64,000 nucleotides of DNA from an uncultured Chloroflexia bacterium (lineage in GTDB: Bacteria > Chloroflexota > Limnocylindria > Limnocylindrales > CSP1-4): the NCBI GenBank assembly GCA_963813535.1, contig CAWEZH010000003.1, forward strand, positions 576,001 to 640,000. The letters are read 5' to 3'. Under the pieces are notes generated by a model that saw only the letters and a program-made list of their open reading frames with translations, ran no database searches and was not told the origin of the DNA. Each line of letters starts with the position of its first letter. Position 1 is the stretch's first letter. Shown here one piece after another: positions 28,996 to 39,067 of this stretch. A program made the position numbers and the translations under genes.

Positions 28996-29763
28996 CTAGC
29001 GCGAAACCGTCCGAACCACGCCGGACATCAGCTTCGTCGCGCGGCGTGCGGCCGTCGGCGAGAGTCGCGAGACCGCGTCGACGAGCTCCAGGACGTCGTC
29101 GTCGTCGAGGCCGCCGAGCAGGTCGAACAGCCGCAACACCGTGTCGTCCGGGATGCGATCCAGGAGGCGCAGCGCTCGTTCCAGCTCGCGCGGCTCGAGC
29201 TGCGGGACCAGGCCGACCGCCCGATCGAACAGCCGCACGAACACGACGAATGACGTCAGCCACTCCTCGAGCGCGGCGAGCTCGGCGTCGTCAGGGTCAG
29301 CTGCGGACGCCGCGGTCGCTTCCTTGGCCTTCTGCTCCAGGACGGCGACCACCGGGTCGCCCTCGCGGACCTTCCGCTCGGCGATCACGCGACCGAACCA
29401 CTGCCAGTGGTCGTTGACGGCCAGGAACGCGGTGCCCGCCGGGCCCCGACGACCGACGCGTCTCGGTTCCGACACGCGCGCGACGAGACCCCAGGATTCC
29501 GCCTCGGCGAGCGCGAGGCTCGCCGCACGATGCGACAGCCCGAGGGCCTCGCGGACTTCACGTTCGGTCAACGGCTCCTGGCGCGCCATCAGATAGGCCT
29601 GGACGCGAGCGATCGCCGGCGTGACGCCCCACGCCGCCCCCATCTCGCCCCACGCGTCGGCGAGGTCGAGCCTGATCGATTCTGCCGTCGATGGTCGGCC
29701 GGTGTCCGCCGCGGGATCGCCGTTCGATCCCTGGGCGTTGGTTGTGGCGATCGTTTCAGTCAT
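28996..29763 (-). CDS. GbsR/MarR-like transcriptional regulator with C-terminal extension
   Basis: WGEMGAAWGV...ARVQAYLM...PLT..EVREALGLS...L...WGLV. Confidence 0.8.
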   Translation of the reverse strand: MTETIATTNAQGSNGDPAADTGRPSTAESIRLDLADAWGEMGAAWGVTPAIARVQAYLMARQEPLTEREVREALGLSHRAASLALAEAESWGLVARVSEPRRVGRRGPAGTAFLAVNDHWQWFGRVIAERKVREGDPVVAVLEQKAKEATAASAADPDDAELAALEEWLTSFVVFVRLFDRAVGLVPQLEPRELERALRLLDRIPDDTVLRLFDLLGGLDDDDVLELVDAVSRLSPTAARRATKLMSGVVRTVSR

Positions 29764-29808
29764 AACTTGCTATGTGATGGTAGCACGAGACTGAGCGGGT
29801 TCTGGCGC

Positions 29809-30270
29809 TCAGACCGCCCCGCCGGCAGACAGCGCCGCTTCGACCGCCGCGAACACCGGATGATCGGCGTCGATCTCGGTCTCGCAGGAGGCGACGCGTT
29901 CGACGCCTCCCGGTGCACCGAACTCGTAGATGCGCTCCTGGCCGTCGAAGTTGACAGGGCATTCGCCGGTGAACGGGCGGGCGCGGATCGCCGCGAAATC
30001 GGTCGTCTTGATCGCCGCGTCCAGCGCCGCGAGCAGCTCCGGCGGGACCTGCCCCAGCACGACGTCCTCGGGCAGTGTCTGGCGGAGCTGCCCGTCGCGA
30101 TCGATCACGAGCGTCGAACCGCACGGTCCATCCGGGCACTCGCCACCTCGCGAGGTGACGGTGACGAGTGGTCCGGCCGTCGCAGGAAGGAGCGATGCCA
30201 CCGCAGCCGGTGAGCAGGCCGCAGCCACGAGCACGATCGCGACGACCCGGGCACCGATGCGCATCGACAT
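29809..30270 (-). CDS. Hypothetical lipoprotein
   Basis: [11 protein letters not shown] lipobox-like; Cys pairs GGECPDGPC and ECPVNFDG...ASC. Confidence 0.7.
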
Positions 30271-30321
30271 GGCTGCCGGACGGACGTGGCGTGCTGTCGG
30301 TTCCGACCTATCATCGGCGGC

Positions 30322-31920
30322 ATGCCGGTCCTCCGCAGCCGCCTCGACCCTGCGGCGCCGGATACCCGTGCCAATCACGACGCGATGGCCGCCCTCGTCG
30401 ACGACCTGCGGGCCCGTCAATCGGAGGTCGCTGATCGCGGAGCCGGCGGGGACGACCGCTCGATCGAGCGTCATCGCGAGCGGGGCAAGCTCCCTGTCCG
30501 CGAACGCATCGACCACCTGCTCGACCCGGGCTCGCCGTTCCTCGAGCTGAGCCCGCTCGCGGCGAACGGGCTCTATGACGGCGACGCACCGGGCGCGGGC
30601 ATCGTCACCGGCGTCGGGCGCGTCGAGGGCACGACCTGCGTGATCGTCGCCAACGACGCCACGGTCAAGGGCGGGACCTACTACCCCGCGACGGTCAAGA
30701 AGCACCTTCGAGCGCAGGAGATCGCGCTCGAGAACCGCCTGCCGTGCATCTACCTGGTCGACAGCGGTGGCGCGTTCCTGCCGCTCCAGGCCGACGTCTT
30801 CCCCGACCGCGATCACTTCGGGCGGATCTTCTACAACCAGGCGCGCATGTCGGCCGCGGCCATCCCACAGGTCGCCCTGGTCATGGGTTCGTGCACCGCC
30901 GGTGGCGCATACGTCCCGGCGATGAGCGATGAGACCGTGATCGTCAAGGGCACCGGGACGATCTTCCTCGGCGGTCCGCCGCTGGTGAAGGCCGCGACCG
31001 GCGAGGACGTGTCGGCCGAGGAGCTCGGGGGCGCCGAGGTCCATACGCGTCGGTCGGGCGTGGCCGATCACGAGGCGCTCGACGACGACCACGCGCTGGC
31101 CATCGGGCGCTCGATCATCGCGAACCTCAACCGTCGTCCGCCGTCGCCGCCGTGGGACCGCCGCGAGCCCGCCCAGCCGGCCGTCGACGCGGCCGGGCTG
31201 TACGGCGCCGTCTCGGCCGACCCGCGCCGACCCGTGCCGGTCCGGGAGATCATCGCCCGGCTGGTCGACGGCTCGCGGTTCCACGAGTTCAAACCGCTCT
31301 ACGGCGAGACGCTGGTCACCGGCTTCGGGCACGTCGACGGCTACCCGGTCGGCATCCTCGCCAACGACGGGATCCTGTTCAGCCAGTCGTCGCTGAAGGG
31401 CGCCCACTTCATCGAGCTGGCCTGCCAGCGCCGCATCCCGCTGGTCTTCCTCCAGAACATCACCGGGTTCATGGTCGGCCGTGAGTACGAGGAGGCCGGC
31501 ATCGCCAAGGATGGAGCGAAGCTCGTCATGGCGGTCGCCTCGGCCGAGGTCCCGAAATTCACCGTCCTGATCGGCGGCTCGTTCGGGGCCGGTAACTACG
31601 CGATGGCCGGTCGGGCGTACCAGCCCCGGTTCCTATGGTCGTGGCCGAACGCCCGGATCTCGGTCATGGGTGGCCAGCAGGCGGCGCGTGTCCTCTCGAC
31701 GGTTCGTGGCGACTTCCCCGACGACGCGGCTCGCGACGCGTTCGAAGCGCCGATCCTCGAGACCTACGAACGCGAGGGCTCGCCCTACTTCGCCACGGCC
31801 AGGTTGTGGGACGACGGTGTCATCGACCCGATGGACACGCGTCGCATCCTGTCCCTGGGCCTCGAGGCGGCGCTGCACGCGCCCATCCCCGAGACGCGGT
31901 TCGGGGTATTCCGTATGTGA
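30322..31920 (+). CDS. mccB: 3-methylcrotonyl-CoA carboxylase carboxyltransferase subunit
   Basis: [56 protein letters not shown]. Confidence 0.95.
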
Positions 31921-31938
31921 CCCGGCAGGGAGGCATCG

Positions 31939-32556
31939 ATGCTCAAGTTCTACAGCGAGATCCCGACTGCCCGCTTCCGTGAATTGCTCGCCGACCTCTC
32001 GACGTGGGGATGGGTGGCGCTCTGGACGATCATCGGCGTCCGCATCCATGACGCGATCTCGGGCTTCGCCGAGGCCGGCCGGATCCTCCGGGGAGGCGGT
32101 CAGAACATCCAGGGCGCAGGAGCCCAGCTGGGCGACGCCCTCGGCGGGCTACCGCTGGTGGGTGCCGGTGTCGACGACCTGACGACCCAAACGTTCGCGA
32201 CCGCCGGAGAGCCGTTCATCTACGTCGGCGGTGAGCTCGAGTCGCTCCTGCTCTTCATCGCGCGGTTGCTCGGCGTGCTCGTCGTCGCGGTGTTCCTGAT
32301 CCCGTGGCTCGTCAGGTACGTGCCATGGCGTGCCCAACGGTTGGCCACCGTCCGGGCGGCGCACCAGGCCATCCGCCGGGCGCCCGTCGACGTGTCCGAT
32401 GCCGCGATGCAGCGCAGCCTGGCGACGCGAGCGCTCAACCGGCTGTCGTACCCCGAGCTGCTCGAGCACACGTCCGACCCGTTCGGCGACTTCGCGGCCG
32501 GCCACTTCGAGCGACTGGCACGGGCCGAGCTCGCCAGTGTCGGCCTGCGACGCTGA
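31939..32556 (+). CDS. Hypothetical membrane protein
   Basis: GGGAGG SD; two TM segments; LATRAL...LARAEL..GL C-terminus. Confidence 0.75.
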   Translation: MLKFYSEIPTARFRELLADLSTWGWVALWTIIGVRIHDAISGFAEAGRILRGGGQNIQGAGAQLGDALGGLPLVGAGVDDLTTQTFATAGEPFIYVGGELESLLLFIARLLGVLVVAVFLIPWLVRYVPWRAQRLATVRAAHQAIRRAPVDVSDAAMQRSLATRALNRLSYPELLEHTSDPFGDFAAGHFERLARAELASVGLRR

Positions 32557-32591
32557 CGCCGTCGACCGGCAGTCTCCGCTAGCATCGCGTC

Positions 32592-33356
32592 GTGCCCACC
32601 GTCGCCCGCTTCTCGATCGCACCAGTCAGGAGTCTCGGCCTCCAGCACCCGAGCGAGATCGACGTCACCGAGCTCGGTGTCGTCGAGGACCGGCGGTTCT
32701 TCCTGACGAATGACGCCAATCGACTGATCGATCAGCTGATCGTCTTCAAGCTCGTGCAGGTCGCATCAAGGACGGACCCGGACGCGACCACGTTGTGGCT
32801 TCGCTTCCCGGACGGGACCGTCGTCGACGCCCCTATCGAGCTCGGCGAGGCGGTCGAGACGCCCATCCACGGGCGCACCGGCGTCGGGCATCGCGTGGTC
32901 GGACCGTGGGACGAGGCGCTCAGCGACTTCGTCGGCATGCCGATCCGGGTCATACGCTGCGATCGGCCCGGTGGCACGCGCAGTGGCAACCCGACCTCCA
33001 TCATCTCGGACGGATCACTCCGTGAGCTGGCGGCGCACGCCGGTGTGGATTCGGTCGACGGCCGGCGGTTCCGGATGCTGATCGACCTGGACGGTGCCGT
33101 GGCCCACGAAGAGGACGGCTGGATCGGCAAACGGATCGGCCTCGGCGAGGCGATCCTGCGCGTGACGAAGCACGATGCTCGGTGCGCGATGACGACGCAC
33201 GACCCCGAAACCGGCGAGCCCGACCTCGACACGCTCCGGACGTTGATCTCGTATCGCGGCCTGCGGGAGGGCAAGCACGCCGACTTCGGCGTCCTGGCCG
33301 ACGTCGATCAGCCCGGCCGGATCCGTGTCGGCGACGCGGTGACGTTGCTCGACTGA
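32592..33356 (+). CDS. MOSC-domain protein
   Basis: IAPVRSL, DRRF, RRFRM, EDGW, RCAMTT, FGV.A....GRIRVGD. Confidence 0.9.
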   Translation: MPTVARFSIAPVRSLGLQHPSEIDVTELGVVEDRRFFLTNDANRLIDQLIVFKLVQVASRTDPDATTLWLRFPDGTVVDAPIELGEAVETPIHGRTGVGHRVVGPWDEALSDFVGMPIRVIRCDRPGGTRSGNPTSIISDGSLRELAAHAGVDSVDGRRFRMLIDLDGAVAHEEDGWIGKRIGLGEAILRVTKHDARCAMTTHDPETGEPDLDTLRTLISYRGLREGKHADFGVLADVDQPGRIRVGDAVTLLD

Positions 33357-33853
33357 CCCCCGTATCGCCGCTCGAGGCGGCGGAGGGCGATCACCCAGAC
33401 CACAGCTGCGATCGCGACGAGCGGTGCGACTCGGATCGCCGACGCGACACCCATGCGGATGATCTCGCCGAGCGCGAGACCGGTGAACTCGGTGAATTCG
33501 GACACGGCGACCACGACGAAGACAGCGATCCCGGTCGACAGGGCCGCTGCGACCGGGGCGCCGATCGCCAGCGCGACGCCGACGACGACCGCGTCGACCC
33601 GCGAGCCGACCGCGGTGGGTGCCAATGCGGCACCGAGCAAAGCCAGGGCCGGCACCGCCATCAAGGCGATCGCGACGGGCACCGACCATGGTCGTCCGGC
33701 AGCCTCGGGAGCGACGATGCCGGCGATCGCCGTCACCCCGCCGAGCAGGACTGCAGCGAGCGCTGCCCCCCGTCGAGCCGTGCGGATGGACGCCAGCCGA
33801 TGACCCGTCGGATCGGGCCGCCAGTTCGGAGACCAGGGGTTCGCGGGACCCAT
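33308..33853 (-). CDS. Hypothetical membrane protein
   Basis: Four hydrophobic helices; TACTCT 6 nt before ATG 33853; 3' end overlaps the MOSC gene. Confidence 0.6.
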   Translation of the reverse strand: MGPANPWSPNWRPDPTGHRLASIRTARRGAALAAVLLGGVTAIAGIVAPEAAGRPWSVPVAIALMAVPALALLGAALAPTAVGSRVDAVVVGVALAIGAPVAAALSTGIAVFVVVAVSEFTEFTGLALGEIIRMGVASAIRVAPLVAIAAVVWVIALRRLERRYGGQSSNVTASPTRIRPG

Positions 33854-33946
33854 GGCCGGAGAGTACCTTCGTTCTGGGGGTTCGCGGTGCATACGGGCAC
33901 CAGAGGTTGATGCGTTGTCGCTGATGGCGGCCGGTACGATGCCCCG

Positions 33947-34756
33947 GTGAATCCGGCCCTACGGCTCGAGCGGACTGGTCCCGGTGGCGTGGTCGCGCAT
34001 GTCACGCTCGCGCGCCCCGACGTCCACAACGCCTTCGACGCATCCCTGATCGCCGAGTTGCTGTCGACCTTCATGGCCCTGGCGCGCGAGGACGAGTCGG
34101 CCCTCCGCGCTGTGGTGATCGCCGGCGACGGGCCCTCGTTCTGTGCCGGAGCGGACATCGCGTGGATGCGCGCGGCTATGGCACTCGATGTCGAAGGCAA
34201 CGAGCAGGACGCGATGGCGATGGCCGACATGTTCGAGACCATCGATGTCTGTCCGGTGCCGGTCATCGCACGGGTCCACGGTGCGGCCCTGGGTGGCGGC
34301 ATGGGGCTGTGCGCGGTCGCCGACCTGGTCATCGCCGAGAGCGGCACGAGGTTCGGGTTCACCGAGACGCGGCTCGGCATCCTGCCCGCCGTCATCGCCC
34401 CGTTCGTGATCGCCAAGATCGGCGAGACAAACGCTCGCGCCCTGTTCCCCGGTGGTCGCCGGTTCGATGCCGTGCGGGCACAGCGGATCGGGCTCGTCCA
34501 CGAGCTCGCCGAGGGCGAGGACGCGCTCGATTCCGCCGTCGAGTCGGCGGTGAGCGATGTCCTTGCCGCGGGACCGACGGCCGCTCGCGCGGCGAAGGCG
34601 ATCATCCGCGAGGTCCGCGGCCTCGGCCACGGATCGGCGAAGTGGCACACGGCGCGGGTCATCGCACGCCAGCGCGTCAGCGACGAGGCCCGCGAAGGCT
34701 TTGCGGCCTTCGCCGAGAAACGCCAGCCGGCGTGGCAGTCAGAGGTCGATGACTGA
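33947..34756 (+). CDS. Enoyl-CoA hydratase (methylglutaconyl-CoA hydratase, LiuC-like)
   Basis: RPDVHNAFD, FCAGAD, GGGMGL, ETRLGILPA; lies within the mcc/HMG-CoA lyase cluster. Confidence 0.9.
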   Translation: MNPALRLERTGPGGVVAHVTLARPDVHNAFDASLIAELLSTFMALAREDESALRAVVIAGDGPSFCAGADIAWMRAAMALDVEGNEQDAMAMADMFETIDVCPVPVIARVHGAALGGGMGLCAVADLVIAESGTRFGFTETRLGILPAVIAPFVIAKIGETNARALFPGGRRFDAVRAQRIGLVHELAEGEDALDSAVESAVSDVLAAGPTAARAAKAIIREVRGLGHGSAKWHTARVIARQRVSDEAREGFAAFAEKRQPAWQSEVDD

Positions 34757-35261
34757 GCCTCGTGTCGCGTGCGTCGGTTGCGGCGGGCTGGTGCCGGACA
34801 TCGAGGGACCGGTCCACCGCTACATGCTCGCCGCACCCGGGTGCTGGGCGGCCTACACCTCGCTCTTGGGTAGCGTGCTCGCCGGCCTGACCGTGCCGGA
34901 ACCGCACCTGTCGCTGATGGTCGATGCCTACGCCGTCCAGCATCCGGGTGTGCCCAACCCGCAGGCGACGCAGTCGGTGTGGGTCCATCTCATCACGCTC
35001 CACATGGCCCTGGAACGTGGCTGGCCGCCGGCGAGGCTGGTCCAGATCAGACGCGTCGGTGCCGATTCCGCGGACGGCTGGCCGTGGTTGGAACCACCTC
35101 GGTCGATGGGTGACGTGACGGCCATCGACGTCGCCTCGAGCATGCCCGACACCGCCCCTCATCTCGTCCGCGAGTGGACCGATGGCGCGTGGGCAGCGTG
35201 GGATCGCCACCAAAACGCCGTACGCCAGCGCGCGATGGACCTGGTCGCGTTGTTCGGCTAG
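34749..35261 (+). CDS. DUF5946-like hypothetical protein
   Basis: CVGCG...GPVHRYM...GCW, VDAYAVQHP, VHL. Confidence 0.7.
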   Translation: MTEPRVACVGCGGLVPDIEGPVHRYMLAAPGCWAAYTSLLGSVLAGLTVPEPHLSLMVDAYAVQHPGVPNPQATQSVWVHLITLHMALERGWPPARLVQIRRVGADSADGWPWLEPPRSMGDVTAIDVASSMPDTAPHLVREWTDGAWAAWDRHQNAVRQRAMDLVALFG

Positions 35262-35301
35262 TCGTCCGCCGCTAGTCGTACGCCGCGCCGTATGCGACAC
35301 T
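35257..35301 (+). promoter_or_regulatory. 14-bp tandem direct repeat overlapping the putative promoter of the HTH-carboxylase gene
   Basis: gctagtcgtccgcc (35257-35270) and gctagtcgtacgcc (35271-35284); TG-c-GACACT at 35293-35301. Confidence 0.5.
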
Positions 35302-35310
35302 CGCGACGGA

Positions 35311-37293
35311 ATGGCCGAAGAACTGAGCCCAAGCGAGGTCGCGCGTCGGCTCGGAACGTCCACCCGCTCCGTCCAGCGTTGGATCGCCAACGGTCGACTC
35401 CCGGCTCGGCGTGTTGGAGGGCGCTGGCGTGTCGCGTTTGACGCGTTTGACGCACCAGAACGCCCACAGGAACGCCCAGCCGCCATCGCGAACGTCTTCA
35501 TCGCCAATCGTGGCGAGATCGCGGACCGCATCGCCCGTACGTGCGAGCGGCTGGGGATCATCGCCGTCGCTCCGCCGATCAGCGGCGACAACGCCGTCGA
35601 CCTGCTTGACCCCACTGCGGTCATCGCCGCCGCACGCGCTGCCGGCGCTGACGCGGTCCATCCGGGCTTCGGCTTCCTTGCCGAGAACGCCGATTTCGCC
35701 CAGTCGGTGATCGACGCCGGCCTCCGGTGGATCGGGCCGCCACCCTCTGCGATCCGCGCGATGGGCGACAAAGCGGCCGCGCGTCGCCTCGCAGCACGTC
35801 TCGGCGTACCGACGCCGGCCGGCTACGACGACGCCGACCAGGCCGACGGGATGCTTGCGGCAGCGGCCGAGCGGATCGGCGTGCCGCTCCTGATCAAACC
35901 CGCCGCAGGCGGTGGTGGGAAGGGGATGCGCACGGTCCGCGACCTCGCGCGACTGCCGAGCGAGATCGCGGCCGCTCGGCGCGAGGCGCATGCCGCGTTC
36001 GGCGACGATCGCCTCATCCTGGAGCGGCTCGTCGAGGGCGCCCGGCACGTCGAGATCCAGGTCCTCTTCGACCGACACGGCCACGGCGTGCACCTCGGGG
36101 AGCGTGACTGCTCGATCCAGCGTCGGCATCAGAAGGTCCTCGAGGAGGCGGGTTCACCGGCCGTCGATGCCCCGCTCCGGGAACGGATGGGCGCGGCCGC
36201 GCTGGCCCTCGCGACAGAGGTCGGCTACGAAAGCGCAGGCACCTGCGAGTTCCTGCTCGACGATCGTGGCGCGTTCACGTTCCTCGAGATGAACACTCGC
36301 CTCCAGGTCGAGCACCCGGTCACGGAGTTCGTGACCGGCCGCGACCTCGTCGCCGACCAGATCCGGATCGCCGGCGGCGAGCCGCTCGGGTTCGACCAGG
36401 GGGACGTGCGACGCGACGGTCACGCGATCGAGGTCCGCCTCTACGCCGAGGATGCCGAGCAGGGGTTCCTGCCCGCGACCGGCGAGGTCCATCGACTGCG
36501 CTGGCCGACGGGCGAGGGCATCCGCGTCGACGCGGGTGTCATGGCGGGCGATGCGGTCGGTGGCCGCTTCGACCCGATGCTCGCGAAGATCATCGCGCAC
36601 GGCCACGACCGGGACGACGCGCTGGATCGCCTGACCCGGGCCCTCGACGACACGCTGATCCTTGGGCTGACGACCAACCTGCGTTTCCTCCGATGGCTCG
36701 TCCGGGAACCCGTCATCCGCGAGGGGGCCGCGCGAACCGACACCCTCGACCGGATCTGGCCGCCCGACGACTGGGCACGCCGGACGCGGATCCCGGAGGC
36801 GGCGTGGTCGGCCGCGACCCGCCTGCTGCTGGGTGGCCGGACATCGGGCGACGGATTCCGCCTCAATGCCGCCCCGACAGCCCGAGTCACGGCCGGGGAG
36901 GAGACACAGACGATCCGACTGGTACCGGGCAGCGCCACGCTGCGCTCCGCGAGCGTCGTCGTCGGCGACACCGTCCACCTCGACATCGCCGGGCGCAGCG
37001 TCGCCTTCCGGATCTCACCACCGCCGGATGTCGACCGGGCCGCCAGCGCCGCAGCGGCCGCGCACGGATCGGGCCCGGCCGAGCTCGTCGCGCCCATGCC
37101 GGGCCAGGTGCTCTCCATCGGCGCACCAGTCGGCACGATCGTCGAGGTCGGCGACACCGTCGTGGTCCTCGAAGCCATGAAGATGGAGCACGCCGTGACG
37201 GCTCCGCGGACGGGTGTCATCCGCGATGTCTTCGTGGGGGCCGGCGACCAGGTGGCCCGCGGCCAGCCGCTCGCGGTGGTCGAGCCCGCCTGA
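35311..37293 (+). CDS. mccA: Biotin carboxylase/biotin carrier subunit (MccA/LiuD) with N-terminal excisionase-type HTH
   Basis: LSPSEVARRLGTSTRSVQRWIANGRLPARRVGGRWRV, then IANRGEIA, HPGFGFLAEN, GGGGKGM, ERDCSIQRRHQK, EMNTRLQVEH, EAMKM. Confidence 0.92.
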   Translation: MAEELSPSEVARRLGTSTRSVQRWIANGRLPARRVGGRWRVAFDAFDAPERPQERPAAIANVFIANRGEIADRIARTCERLGIIAVAPPISGDNAVDLLDPTAVIAAARAAGADAVHPGFGFLAENADFAQSVIDAGLRWIGPPPSAIRAMGDKAAARRLAARLGVPTPAGYDDADQADGMLAAAAERIGVPLLIKPAAGGGGKGMRTVRDLARLPSEIAAARREAHAAFGDDRLILERLVEGARHVEIQVLFDRHGHGVHLGERDCSIQRRHQKVLEEAGSPAVDAPLRERMGAAALALATEVGYESAGTCEFLLDDRGAFTFLEMNTRLQVEHPVTEFVTGRDLVADQIRIAGGEPLGFDQGDVRRDGHAIEVRLYAEDAEQGFLPATGEVHRLRWPTGEGIRVDAGVMAGDAVGGRFDPMLAKIIAHGHDRDDALDRLTRALDDTLILGLTTNLRFLRWLVREPVIREGAARTDTLDRIWPPDDWARRTRIPEAAWSAATRLLLGGRTSGDGFRLNAAPTARVTAGEETQTIRLVPGSATLRSASVVVGDTVHLDIAGRSVAFRISPPPDVDRAASAAAAAHGSGPAELVAPMPGQVLSIGAPVGTIVEVGDTVVVLEAMKMEHAVTAPRTGVIRDVFVGAGDQVARGQPLAVVEPA

Positions 37294-37317
37294 GGGGCGA
37301 CGCGGTACGCTTCGGCC

Positions 37318-37533
37318 ATGGCGAACGACGACAAGGGACGACCGCCTTCCGGCGGCACCACGAAGCTCCCGAAGACCCGAGCCGAGCTCCTCGCCCTGCA
37401 CCGCGAGACACGGGCGCGTCGGAATGCAGCGGCACACGGTAGCCCGGAGCACGTGGAGGCGATCGACCTGATCGGTCGCATCGAGATCGAGATCGCCCGC
37501 ATCGAGCGGGCGATGGATCCGCCCGTCGTCTGA
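37318..37533 (+). CDS. Hypothetical 71-aa helical protein
   Basis: Clean ORF between mccA and the lyase; TACGCT 6 nt upstream. Confidence 0.7.
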   Translation: MANDDKGRPPSGGTTKLPKTRAELLALHRETRARRNAAAHGSPEHVEAIDLIGRIEIEIARIERAMDPPVV

Positions 37534-37543
37534 CCTCCGGCCG

Positions 37544-38488
37544 ATGACCCCGAGACCCGGCGATGGTCGCGTCCGGATCTATGAGGTCGGGCCCCGCGAC
37601 GGGCTCCAGAACGAGTCGGTCGCGATACCGACCGACGTCAAGCTCCGCTTCATCGAGCTGCTGGTCGACGCCGGTCTGCGGGAGATCGAGGCGACGTCAT
37701 TCGTCTCGCCGCGGGCGATCCCCCAGCTGGCCGACGCCGACGACCTCGTCGCACGGCTGCCGCTCCGGCCAGGCGTTCGCTATCCGGTCCTGATCCCGAA
37801 CCAGCGCGGCCTCGCGCGGGCGGAGGCCGCCGGCGTTGACGCCATCGCGGTCTTCACCGCGGCGACGGACGCGTTCACACAGCACAACATCGGGATGACG
37901 GTCGACGAGTCGCTCGCAGCCTTCCAGCCCGTCCTGGCCAGGGCCGACGAGCTCGGCTGGTGGCGCCGCGCCTACGTCTCGACCGCCTTCGGATGCCCCT
38001 ACACCGGGCGGGTGGACCCACGGGACGCGGTCGCGGTCGCCGTCCGCCTCATGGCGCTCGGCGTCGACGAGATCTGCTTCGGCGACACCATCGGTGTCGG
38101 TGTGCCGGATCAGGTCGCCGAGCTGGTGGGACTCGTCGAGGCCGCTGGCATCCCGCCCGCCCGACAGGCCTACCACTTCCACGACACGCGGGGAACCGCG
38201 CTCGCCAACGTCGCGATGGGACTCGCAGCGGGCGTACGGACGTTCGACGCGTCGACCGGCGGAACCGGCGGCTGCCCGTATGCGCCGGGCGCGGCCGGCA
38301 ACCTCGCGACCGAGGACCTGGTCTACCTGCTCGATGCATCCGGCTACGAGCACGGAGTCGCCCTCGACGGTGTCCTGACCGCGGCACGCTTCATCGCCGA
38401 TGCCCTGGGCAAGCCTCTCGCGACGAAAGTCGGTCAGGCGGGTGGCTGGGACGGGGCGACAGGCCACGCGACCGGCCGCGGGGACTGA
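37544..38488 (+). CDS. Hydroxymethylglutaryl-CoA lyase (LiuE-like)
   Basis: EVGPRDGLQNE, FGCPY, GDTIG, HFHDTRG, GGCPYAPGA.GN.ATED. Confidence 0.95.
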   Translation: MTPRPGDGRVRIYEVGPRDGLQNESVAIPTDVKLRFIELLVDAGLREIEATSFVSPRAIPQLADADDLVARLPLRPGVRYPVLIPNQRGLARAEAAGVDAIAVFTAATDAFTQHNIGMTVDESLAAFQPVLARADELGWWRRAYVSTAFGCPYTGRVDPRDAVAVAVRLMALGVDEICFGDTIGVGVPDQVAELVGLVEAAGIPPARQAYHFHDTRGTALANVAMGLAAGVRTFDASTGGTGGCPYAPGAAGNLATEDLVYLLDASGYEHGVALDGVLTAARFIADALGKPLATKVGQAGGWDGATGHATGRGD

Positions 38489-38551
38489 CGGCCGGCCGCC
38501 TGGTCGCGAACGGGGGGCCTGCTCCGGTGAACTTGCTATCCTCCGCCCACC

Positions 38552-39067
38552 ATGGACGGCGTCGTTCTCGTTCTGAACCAGAACTACGAGCCGCTCAACG
38601 TCTGCAATCTCCCGAGGGCCTTCCGTCTCCTCTTCGGTGAGAAGGCCGAGGTGATCGAGTACGACCACCAGATGATTCGGACGCCGCGGACGGAGTTCCG
38701 CGCGCCCTCGGTGATCCGGCTCCAGCACCTCATCAAGCGACCGCGACCCAGGGTCAAGCTGTCGCGGCGCGAGGTCTTCGCCCGCGATCGGCATACCTGT
38801 CAGTACTGCGGCCGGCAGACCCATGACCTCACGCTCGACCACGTGGTCCCCCGCCACCGTGGCGGTGGGCACAGCTGGGAGAACCTCGTGACCGCGTGCA
38901 AGTCGTGCAACCATCGCAAGGGCGGCAAGACGCTCGACGAGGCCCGGCTACGCCTCCAGCATGCCCCGTTCGAGCCGCGCAGCGACATCTATTCGCTCTT
39001 CACCCCGTACCTCTCGGACGACCGCAACGACGCATGGCGCACGTACCTGTTCCTGGGGAGGAACTGA
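38552..39067 (+). CDS. HNH endonuclease (stand-alone McrA-like family)
   Basis: VLVLNQNYEPL, PSVIRL, RDRHTCQYCG, DHVVP..RGG..WENLVTACKSCNHRK. Confidence 0.92.
   Translation: MDGVVLVLNQNYEPLNVCNLPRAFRLLFGEKAEVIEYDHQMIRTPRTEFRAPSVIRLQHLIKRPRPRVKLSRREVFARDRHTCQYCGRQTHDLTLDHVVPRHRGGGHSWENLVTACKSCNHRKGGKTLDEARLRLQHAPFEPRSDIYSLFTPYLSDDRNDAWRTYLFLGRN

Follow-up and report, generated by a model that had tools for sequence, protein, structure and literature searches.

An excisionase-type winged helix fused to a methylcrotonyl-CoA carboxylase subunit, and a candidate operator before its gene, in Limnocylindria

Enzyme-repressors and excisionase-type domains

BirA (biotin ligase and bio repressor in one), PutA and NadR are enzyme-repressors in which a DNA-binding domain is fused to the enzyme. 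Here we describe a gene that invites comparison with them: in a 64,000-nucleotide (nt) stretch of a Limnocylindria genome (contig CAWEZH010000003.1, positions 576,001 to 640,000; hereafter the window), the alpha subunit of methylcrotonyl-CoA carboxylase (MCC) begins with a winged helix-turn-helix (HTH) domain, and directly before its start codon lies a conserved element that is a candidate operator (Table 1). The original prediction, made from the DNA letters, took this gene for a candidate self-regulating enzyme. As in BirA, PutA and NadR, an active enzyme would be combined with an N-terminal DNA-binding domain for genes of its own pathway, the regulation here being putative. The known three differ from it in their DNA-binding folds, partner enzymes and operators (palindromes for BirA) and in their co-repressor logic, and BirA (1hxd) appears far down the Foldseek list for the HTH model. 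With its matched candidate operator, the HTH-carboxylase fusion would extend the enzyme-repressor theme, and from sequence we regard autoregulation as probable.

A likeness within the carboxylases themselves is provided by E. coli accBC, where AccB, also a subunit of a biotin-dependent carboxylase, has been proposed to repress its own operon (James and Cronan, 2004, as related in PMC11602165). In that account AccB is without a recognisable DNA-binding motif and the mechanism is unexplained (PMC11602165), whereas the fused protein has an explicit winged HTH and a candidate operator. Full-text searches, at the level of listings and abstracts, found no description of a biotin-dependent carboxylase with a DNA-binding domain.

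The HTH has its own set of relatives. Pukovnik Xis (from a mycobacteriophage; 4j2n), RdfS and P2 Cox resemble it, and it passes the thresholds of both HTH_17 and TIGR01764, but unlike these excisionases and recombination directionality factors it is accompanied by no integrase or mobile element and is part of a metabolic enzyme. LiuR, the MerR-family regulator of the liu genes in proteobacteria, is a full-length dimer that acts on palindromic operators of several liu operons; it shares with the fused protein a MerR-superfamily HTH and the link to leucine-catabolic genes. Classical MerR and LiuR proteins, however, continue into a C-terminal coiled coil and effector domain where here a linker follows directly after residue 48, and a classical MerR operator is palindromic with an over-long spacer of 19–20 bp, in contrast to the direct repeats and 17 nt spacer (the latter in the third clade of fused loci) described below. 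The small winged HTH of Streptomyces BldC (6ama, 6amk) likewise does without the MerR coiled coil and effector domain. As described in PMC5859096, each BldC protomer binds one 9-bp direct repeat, a variable number of protomers align head to tail, and the AT-rich repeat, AATTXXXX(C), is partly read through the shape of a narrowed minor groove; the element here comparably offers two or three direct repeats with a 9-bp period, to which binding is putative. BldC is nonetheless a free-standing, 68-residue global developmental regulator, whereas the HTH here forms one chain with a 600-residue enzyme in each of the 37 loci where the fusion was read.

The fused protein, its spread and its selection

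The gene encodes 660 residues in the order HTH_17, a linker of about 10 residues, a full biotin carboxylase (BC), a BT-like region and a biotin carboxyl carrier protein (BCCP) domain with its AMKM motif. HTH_17 (PF12728) scores 45.8 bits at residues 5–48 against a Pfam cut-off of 27, and the NCBIfam model TIGR01764 ('excisionase family DNA-binding') 41.3 bits against 28.8; Pfam further gives Biotin_carb_N 81.7 bits, CPSase_L_D2 215 bits (residues 153–359), Biotin_carb_C 114.6 bits (residues 374–480) and Biotin_lipoyl 51.7 bits (residues 591–656). The original prediction had seen an HTH_17/MerR-like winged helix at the N-terminus, in frame with a biotin carboxylase, and both points are borne out by these scores and by the stop-free frame that joins the HTH to three carboxylase domains and the biotinyl domain. 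It had also noted that no ATG lies between the HTH and the carboxylase, which proves true of GTG and TTG as well: from residue 2 to residue 66 there is no in-frame ATG, GTG or TTG and only one CTG, at residue 5, so that ordinary internal initiation cannot yield an enzyme lacking the HTH. A longer reading frame from an in-frame ATG at 35182 was rejected, as it overlaps the preceding DUF5946 gene and the added stretch is unconserved in relatives. The concern that the fusion might be an assembly artefact is answered by short contigs from soil metagenomes, two of which bridge the HTH/BC junction (X2 record 17, 35411–35744; X18 record 9, 35413–35666) and a third of which (X3 record 18, 35086–35374) spans the upstream element and the start codon. 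None of the runs listed as holding the sequence is recorded as RNA; X18 is a run guessed to be a metatranscriptome, and its contigs cover only 35413–35724.

In the full-length AlphaFold2 (AF2) model (26-row alignment; mean predicted local distance difference test score, pLDDT, 86) the HTH folds on its own with a pLDDT of about 80, and residues 47–55 fall below 50. A second model is of the HTH only (31-row alignment, pLDDT 75.6). The models show a strand, two helices, a wing of two strands and then a short helix, after which comes the disordered linker. The nearest Foldseek neighbor of the HTH-only model is Pukovnik Xis (TM 0.72–0.77, 42% identity), then come the BldC-DNA complexes 6ama and 6amk (TM 0.61–0.73, root-mean-square deviation 1.2–1.8 Å, 30–32% identity), with RacA, RdfS and P2 Cox ranking after Xis and BldC. 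A sequence search with the HTH (E-values of 7e-4 for Xis, 8e-3 for RacA and 0.16 for BldC) agrees with the order of the folds. On the enzyme side, relative both to the Pfam profile and to the third-clade fused relatives P0183 and P0247, the biotin carboxylase is short of about 19 residues in its N subdomain, which is trimmed behind the second strand (35560–35610, residues ~85–100); AF2 confidence stays high across the trimmed stretch.

The fused protein is most likely the working MCC alpha subunit of the cell and not a relic of an enzyme turned regulator, to judge from its only-copy status, the nearby MCC beta gene and its intact residues. The nearest solved relative by sequence, 9yx0_D (1e-148), belongs to an entry named only 'biotin carboxylase'; next are P. 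aeruginosa MCC alpha (3u9s_A, 8e-135) and human MCCC1 (1e-125), with the alpha subunit of propionyl-CoA carboxylase (PCC) weaker at about 1e-115, so that the best named relatives in the PDB are MCC alpha subunits, ahead of PCC alpha. The claim that catalytic motifs and biotinyl site are kept is likewise upheld: across 26 fused homologues K154, K196, GGGGKGM (200–206) of the ATP-grasp glycine loop, H246, K275, E313, E326, N328, R330, Q332, V333, E334 and R376, the putative equivalents of the catalytic residues of E. coli biotin carboxylase, are invariant, as are A622, M623, K624 and M625 of the AMKM motif. Of the three biotin carboxylase genes in the genome that holds the window (3.28 Mb in three contigs, 92.9% complete), just one carries the HTH, and this is also the only MCC-alpha-like gene.

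The fusion was read in 37 loci that fall into three clades of one Chloroflexota class (records named Limnocylindria/CSP1-4), as expected if it recurs in related genomes. Among the matches listed for residues 1–160, whose source names include 'Candidatus Limnocylindrales', 120 of 120 carry PF12728 together with the carboxylase domains at 69–86% identity, and most of the 24 genomes of the same genus have a match over this region, some of these matches being interrupted by frameshifts where the assembly is fragmentary. Of 401 genomes sampled evenly from the phylum, 25 match the first 100 residues (E ≤ 1e-12): 8 of 23 from the same family, 16 of 16 from a second family of the class; the other families in the sample gave no match. 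A search of species-representative genomes with the distant fused homologue P0183 returned four fused loci (L046, L055, L057 and L058, of which L055 is a record titled Chloroflexi bacterium CSP1-4). The remaining matches start at about residue 47 or later and have no HTH; they include the Limnocylindria-labelled L045 and L054 and records titled Eremiobacterota, Actinomycetota, Bacteroidota, several Proteobacteria and Methanosarcinales.

Purifying selection acts on the fused parts. By pairwise NG86 comparison of 12 intact orthologues, the ratio of nonsynonymous to synonymous substitution (dN/dS) is lowest in the HTH (0.14), followed by ATP-grasp (0.19), BC-N (0.22), BC-C (0.29), BCCP (0.39) and BT (0.43), and it reaches about 1.0 in the 10-residue linker. 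R19, V21, Q22, R23 and W24 of the second helix, as well as G36, are invariant in 31 sequences from the three clades, between which HTH identity is only 41–79%. The fusion is real, recurrent, old and under purifying selection. That the HTH might be a neutral or decaying leftover of gene fusion, without function, is barely credible: the low dN/dS of the domain contradicts it, as does the retention of the domain in three clades of one class.

The upstream element and negative autoregulation

Immediately ahead of the start codon, all 37 fused loci share a block of 15–16 nt; the remaining intergenic DNA and the upstream gene differ from locus to locus. In the window the block reads TGCGACACTCGCGAC (35293–35307), and in 11 of the 13 second-family loci TGCGACAATCGCGAC directly adjoins the start codon (ATG or GTG), the other two having a one-base variant. 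Its positions are conserved in 28–37 of the 37 loci, those of the flanks in 10–24. The block is made up of two GCGACA-type hexamers with a 9-bp period, the second of which ends 0–3 nt before the start codon; third-clade loci have three such units at the same period, the third degenerate, and in L026, a locus from the window's own family, the element contains a direct repeat of 8 nt without mismatch. An alternative description as a palindrome or hairpin (GCGA-NNN-TCGC) was rejected, since this symmetry is lost in the third clade (L042, L046) and the 9-bp direct repeat is retained.

The element is close to unique. A 21-nt position weight matrix (PWM) derived from 13 instances gives the site at the alpha gene 28.4 bits and the next best site in the same genome 20.5 bits, and the exact 15-mer, with one mismatch allowed, occurs once per genome, at the fused gene, in five of five second-family genomes, apart from one additional one-mismatch match elsewhere in one of the five. 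In ten unfused homologous loci scanned from −400 to +200 the matrix finds nothing above 9.9 bits, and neither the MCC beta nor the hydratase gene was found to have a copy of the element ahead of it. Of the search patterns, the 21-nt PWM and the exact 15-mer alone are specific for the element: the loose pattern TGCGACNNTCGCGMC with one or two mismatches was discarded as a search, being common in a genome of 70% G+C and hence uninformative, and a relaxed two-hexamer expression has 20 matches in the window, mostly in coding DNA, against 5.6 in mononucleotide shuffles.

The element also appears to overlap a promoter. A −10-like hexamer 9 nt before the start, as the original prediction had it, is indeed present, in the form of a TG-extended GACACT (TG at 35293–35294, hexamer at 35296–35301), and it lies inside the conserved block. 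The loci of the first two clades have the TG-extended form TGnGACAAT (GACACT in the window), and in four of five loci of the third the layout is TTGACA (TTGACG in one), 17 nt, GACATT and then 6–11 nt to the start (6–7 nt in three). In the first two clades, the distance from the end of the hexamer to the start is exactly 6 nt in all 13 second-family loci and 8–10 nt in 20 loci of the window's own family. No Shine-Dalgarno sequence is visible before the alpha start, and in at least nine second-family loci this is the only candidate start codon between the upstream stop and the HTH. In the window's genome, a −10-like hexamer stands 5–8 nt before 21% of 188 open reading frames (ORFs) with unambiguous starts, compared with 2.8% of control positions, and only one third of the 188 have a Shine-Dalgarno-like word. 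Leaderless mRNAs thus appear to be common in this genome and lineage, and the alpha promoter would itself be leaderless or nearly so.

Could the element be a core promoter with a leaderless start and nothing else? The HTH would then serve some other end, such as unspecific, RacA-like tethering to the nucleoid, binding at a less conserved site elsewhere, or a protein-protein contact. TG, A2 and T6 are placed as in a −10 element, the distance to the start is held at 6–10 nt, leaderless-type starts are common in this genome, and RacA is among the closest matches in both sequence and fold, as the tethering variant would have it. Even so we consider this quite unlikely, for much of the conservation falls where a promoter has no use for it. 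The −10-like hexamers match the consensus at only three or four of six positions, and G1 and C3 are present in 37 of 37 loci each and the CGCGAC that follows in 31–37; a promoter requires neither these nor the spacer hexamer of the third clade, and their near-invariance, across clades whose HTHs have diverged as far as noted above, points to a further constraint, for which an operator is the simplest candidate. A conserved 15-nt promoter that is unique in its genome would moreover be unusual.

The position of the element permits another explanation, at the level of RNA, in which it would serve as an operator for translation initiation, and the protein might bind it with its own HTH in translational autoregulation. 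The second hexamer does abut the start codon (0–3 nt) in the place of a Shine-Dalgarno sequence, and in many loci the hydratase gene ends 20–60 nt upstream on the same strand. The only possible hairpin, however, has 4–5 bp and is lost in the third clade where the direct repeat persists, the layout of −35, 17-nt spacer and −10 is visible in that clade, and we know of no RNA binding by the winged-helix fold of this HTH; we therefore judge this explanation highly improbable.

Two further repeats occur close by. At 35258–35285 there is a direct repeat of CTAGTCGT, 6 nt and again CTAGTCGT. The TAGTCG in its second copy precedes the −10-like GACACT by 17 nt and is a possible weak −35; L009 and L010, the closest two relatives, show similar TAGTCG words 17–18 nt upstream. 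On the minus strand at 35427–35455, inside the HTH coding region, there are three GCGTCA/GCGAC hexamers with a 9-bp period, where the protein reads VAFDAFDA. These may be a second operator, but are probably a coincidence, since the repeated V/D-Ala codons largely dictate the pattern, and these residues do not recur in that way in the second-family protein.

What, then, does the fused domain do at its own gene? We hold with moderate confidence that the alpha subunit represses its own operon, which comprises the genes for alpha, a conserved small protein (orf71) and 3-hydroxy-3-methylglutaryl-CoA (HMG-CoA) lyase. In this model the Xis/BldC-type winged helix, tethered to the N-terminus of MCC alpha by the flexible linker, would bind the tandem GCGACA-type hexamers on the gene's own promoter, with two or three HTH domains sitting head to tail at the 9-bp period, and the bound domains would block transcription of the alpha-orf71-HMG-CoA lyase unit, a case of negative autoregulation. 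Two of these steps are inferred, namely that the fused HTH binds the element in preference to some other factor, and that its binding represses. For the first, the second HTH helix is invariant across three clades and so is the hexamer, and together with the 9-bp repeats of BldC this makes binding of the fused domain to its own promoter the cheapest explanation; for the second, the repeats cover the −10 and the transcription start, so that binding should repress. As the element occurs once per genome, at alpha only, the candidate regulon is this single unit. The self-regulating enzyme of the original prediction is accordingly still the best reading, given a fusion under selection, an intact enzyme and a unique conserved element, but its extension to the leucine-catabolic genes as a whole is not supported, with the element found at alpha only, and neither is the proposed control by assembly or ligand state.

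Several observations weigh against autoregulation by the fused domain. The Foldseek E-values for the HTH are all above 1e-3, as is to be expected for 50 residues, and its sequence similarity to BldC is weak (E 0.16); moreover, BldC repeats are AT-rich in the description cited above, whereas the element is GC-rich (GCGACA plus 3 nt) and unique in the genome. A sigma-70 scan of 29200–38900 returned no promoter-like site, and TG, A2 and T6 of the −10, a part of what is conserved in the element, are accounted for by its role as a promoter. HTH and element are never found apart, and their link is one of co-inheritance among kin and not of independent events. An unfused orthologue within the class was sought as a natural control, and the five genomes without the fusion yielded paralogues only, at 44–50% identity. 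Finally, another transcription factor could own the site, as taken up below.

It is speculative that an oligomeric alpha subunit, in which several HTHs are clustered, is the form that binds, so that subunit level or assembly would feed back on synthesis. In P. aeruginosa MCC, the alpha subunits form trimers at each end of the holoenzyme. A stronger version, which we think unlikely, has the assembled carboxylase itself as the repressor, the three winged helices of a trimer reading the two or three repeats by avidity. Were this version true, synthesis of alpha and HMG-CoA lyase would be set by the amount of carboxylase in the cell, and repression might be lifted once the enzyme is occupied by substrate or by filament formation; quaternary structure would supply the cooperativity that free BldC and Xis obtain by oligomerising on DNA, and this would be the first biotin-dependent carboxylase to act as a transcription factor.

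Autoregulation by the tethered winged helix, in whichever form, would be of interest for several reasons. Bifunctional enzyme-repressors are few and, as BirA and PutA illustrate, instructive, and here the enzyme belongs to the large and well-understood class of biotin-dependent acyl-CoA carboxylases. One protein, one site and one operon make a clean system, which could show how the abundance or assembly of an enzyme feeds back on transcription and what tethering to a large oligomer means for the working of a Xis/BldC-type domain. It would offer a concrete counterpart to the long-proposed autoregulation of accBC by AccB, and it adds a regulatory feature for Limnocylindria, an abundant uncultured lineage of soil and freshwater.

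Gene neighborhood and other candidate regulators

Table 1. Features of the fused gene, its upstream element and the surrounding cluster in the window. Positions are those of the window.
Feature	Position	Strand	Basis
HTH-MCC-alpha gene, 660 aa	35311..37293	+	ATG at 35311, stop at 37293, no internal stops
HTH_17 / excisionase-type winged helix-turn-helix, residues 5–48	35323..35454	+	Pfam, NCBIfam, AF2, Foldseek
Flexible linker, residues 49–58, variable in length and sequence	35455..35484	+	dN/dS, pLDDT, alignment
Biotin carboxylase, residues 59–480	35485..36750	+	Pfam
Biotinyl (BCCP) domain; AMKM lysine K624 at 37180–37182	37081..37278	+	Pfam and alignment
Conserved promoter/operator element (putative)	35285..35310	+	Alignment of 37 fused loci
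Degenerate hexamer GCGCCG	35285–35290	+	Element sequence
Hexamer 1, GCGACA	35294–35299	+	Element sequence
Hexamer 2, GCGACG	35303–35308	+	Element sequence, 9-bp period
MCC beta (carboxyltransferase)	30286..31920	+	3u9r_B, 7e-224
Enoyl-CoA hydratase, candidate methylglutaconyl-CoA hydratase	33947..34756	+	Pfam/NCBIfam
orf71, conserved 71-codon gene between alpha and HMG-CoA lyase	37318..37533	+	Same-genus comparison
HMG-CoA lyase	37544..38488	+	NF004283, 360 bits, cut-off 246
Weak MarR_2-like ORF	28996–29763	−	Pfam 23.6 bits, below cut-off 27

The genes around alpha (Table 1) fit its assignment to leucine catabolism. The MCC beta gene matches 3u9r_B far better than geranyl-CoA carboxylase beta (6e-133) or PCC beta (about 1e-79), and the enoyl-CoA hydratase and HMG-CoA lyase round off the lower leucine pathway beside the MCC genes. 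In 15 of 15 loci of the same genus, alpha is followed directly by orf71 and then by the HMG-CoA lyase gene, and HMG-CoA lyase is probably co-transcribed with alpha. The protein encoded by orf71, for which a Pfam search found no family, is 70–90% identical across the same 15 loci. MCC beta and the hydratase lie upstream of alpha with variable insertions: in the window a DUF5946 gene (~34760–35261, plus strand) separates the hydratase from alpha, in L009, the closest relative, 61 nt lie between the end of the hydratase gene and alpha, and this gap ranges from ~30 to 1700 nt among same-genus loci. Insertions evidently occur at this joint, as the varying gap size tells, while the element stays with alpha.

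The original prediction saw no separate regulator in the cluster, and this is now doubtful. The minus-strand ORF listed last in Table 1 resembles MarR_2 below the cut-off and has no NCBIfam match; by eye its sequence is like that of a GbsR/MarR-type regulator, and it is divergent to the MCC beta gene. It could be a separate regulator for the rest of the cluster. One may go further and suppose that the element before alpha is the operator of a separately encoded regulator, such as this ORF at the head of the cluster or one of the seven other HTH_17 matches in the genome, some of which are in ordinary regulator-like proteins, and that the fused HTH has some other target. Here the varying surroundings are informative: the element follows the fused gene through changing neighborhoods in which even the upstream gene differs, and its 9-bp direct-repeat layout suits a domain of the Xis/BldC type. 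MarR dimers, for their part, typically use palindromic sites, unlike the direct repeats of the element. On balance we find it very unlikely that the site belongs to a separate regulator, and return to the fused HTH as the probable reader of its own promoter.

Judged by eye from the sequences, the other HTH_17 genes of the genome show no trend of enzyme fusions. Three of their products (C2:1796789–1799752, C3:1000856–1001860 and C3:658622–659602) have, again by eye, GAF/sensor-, TOBE- and B12-binding-like tails.

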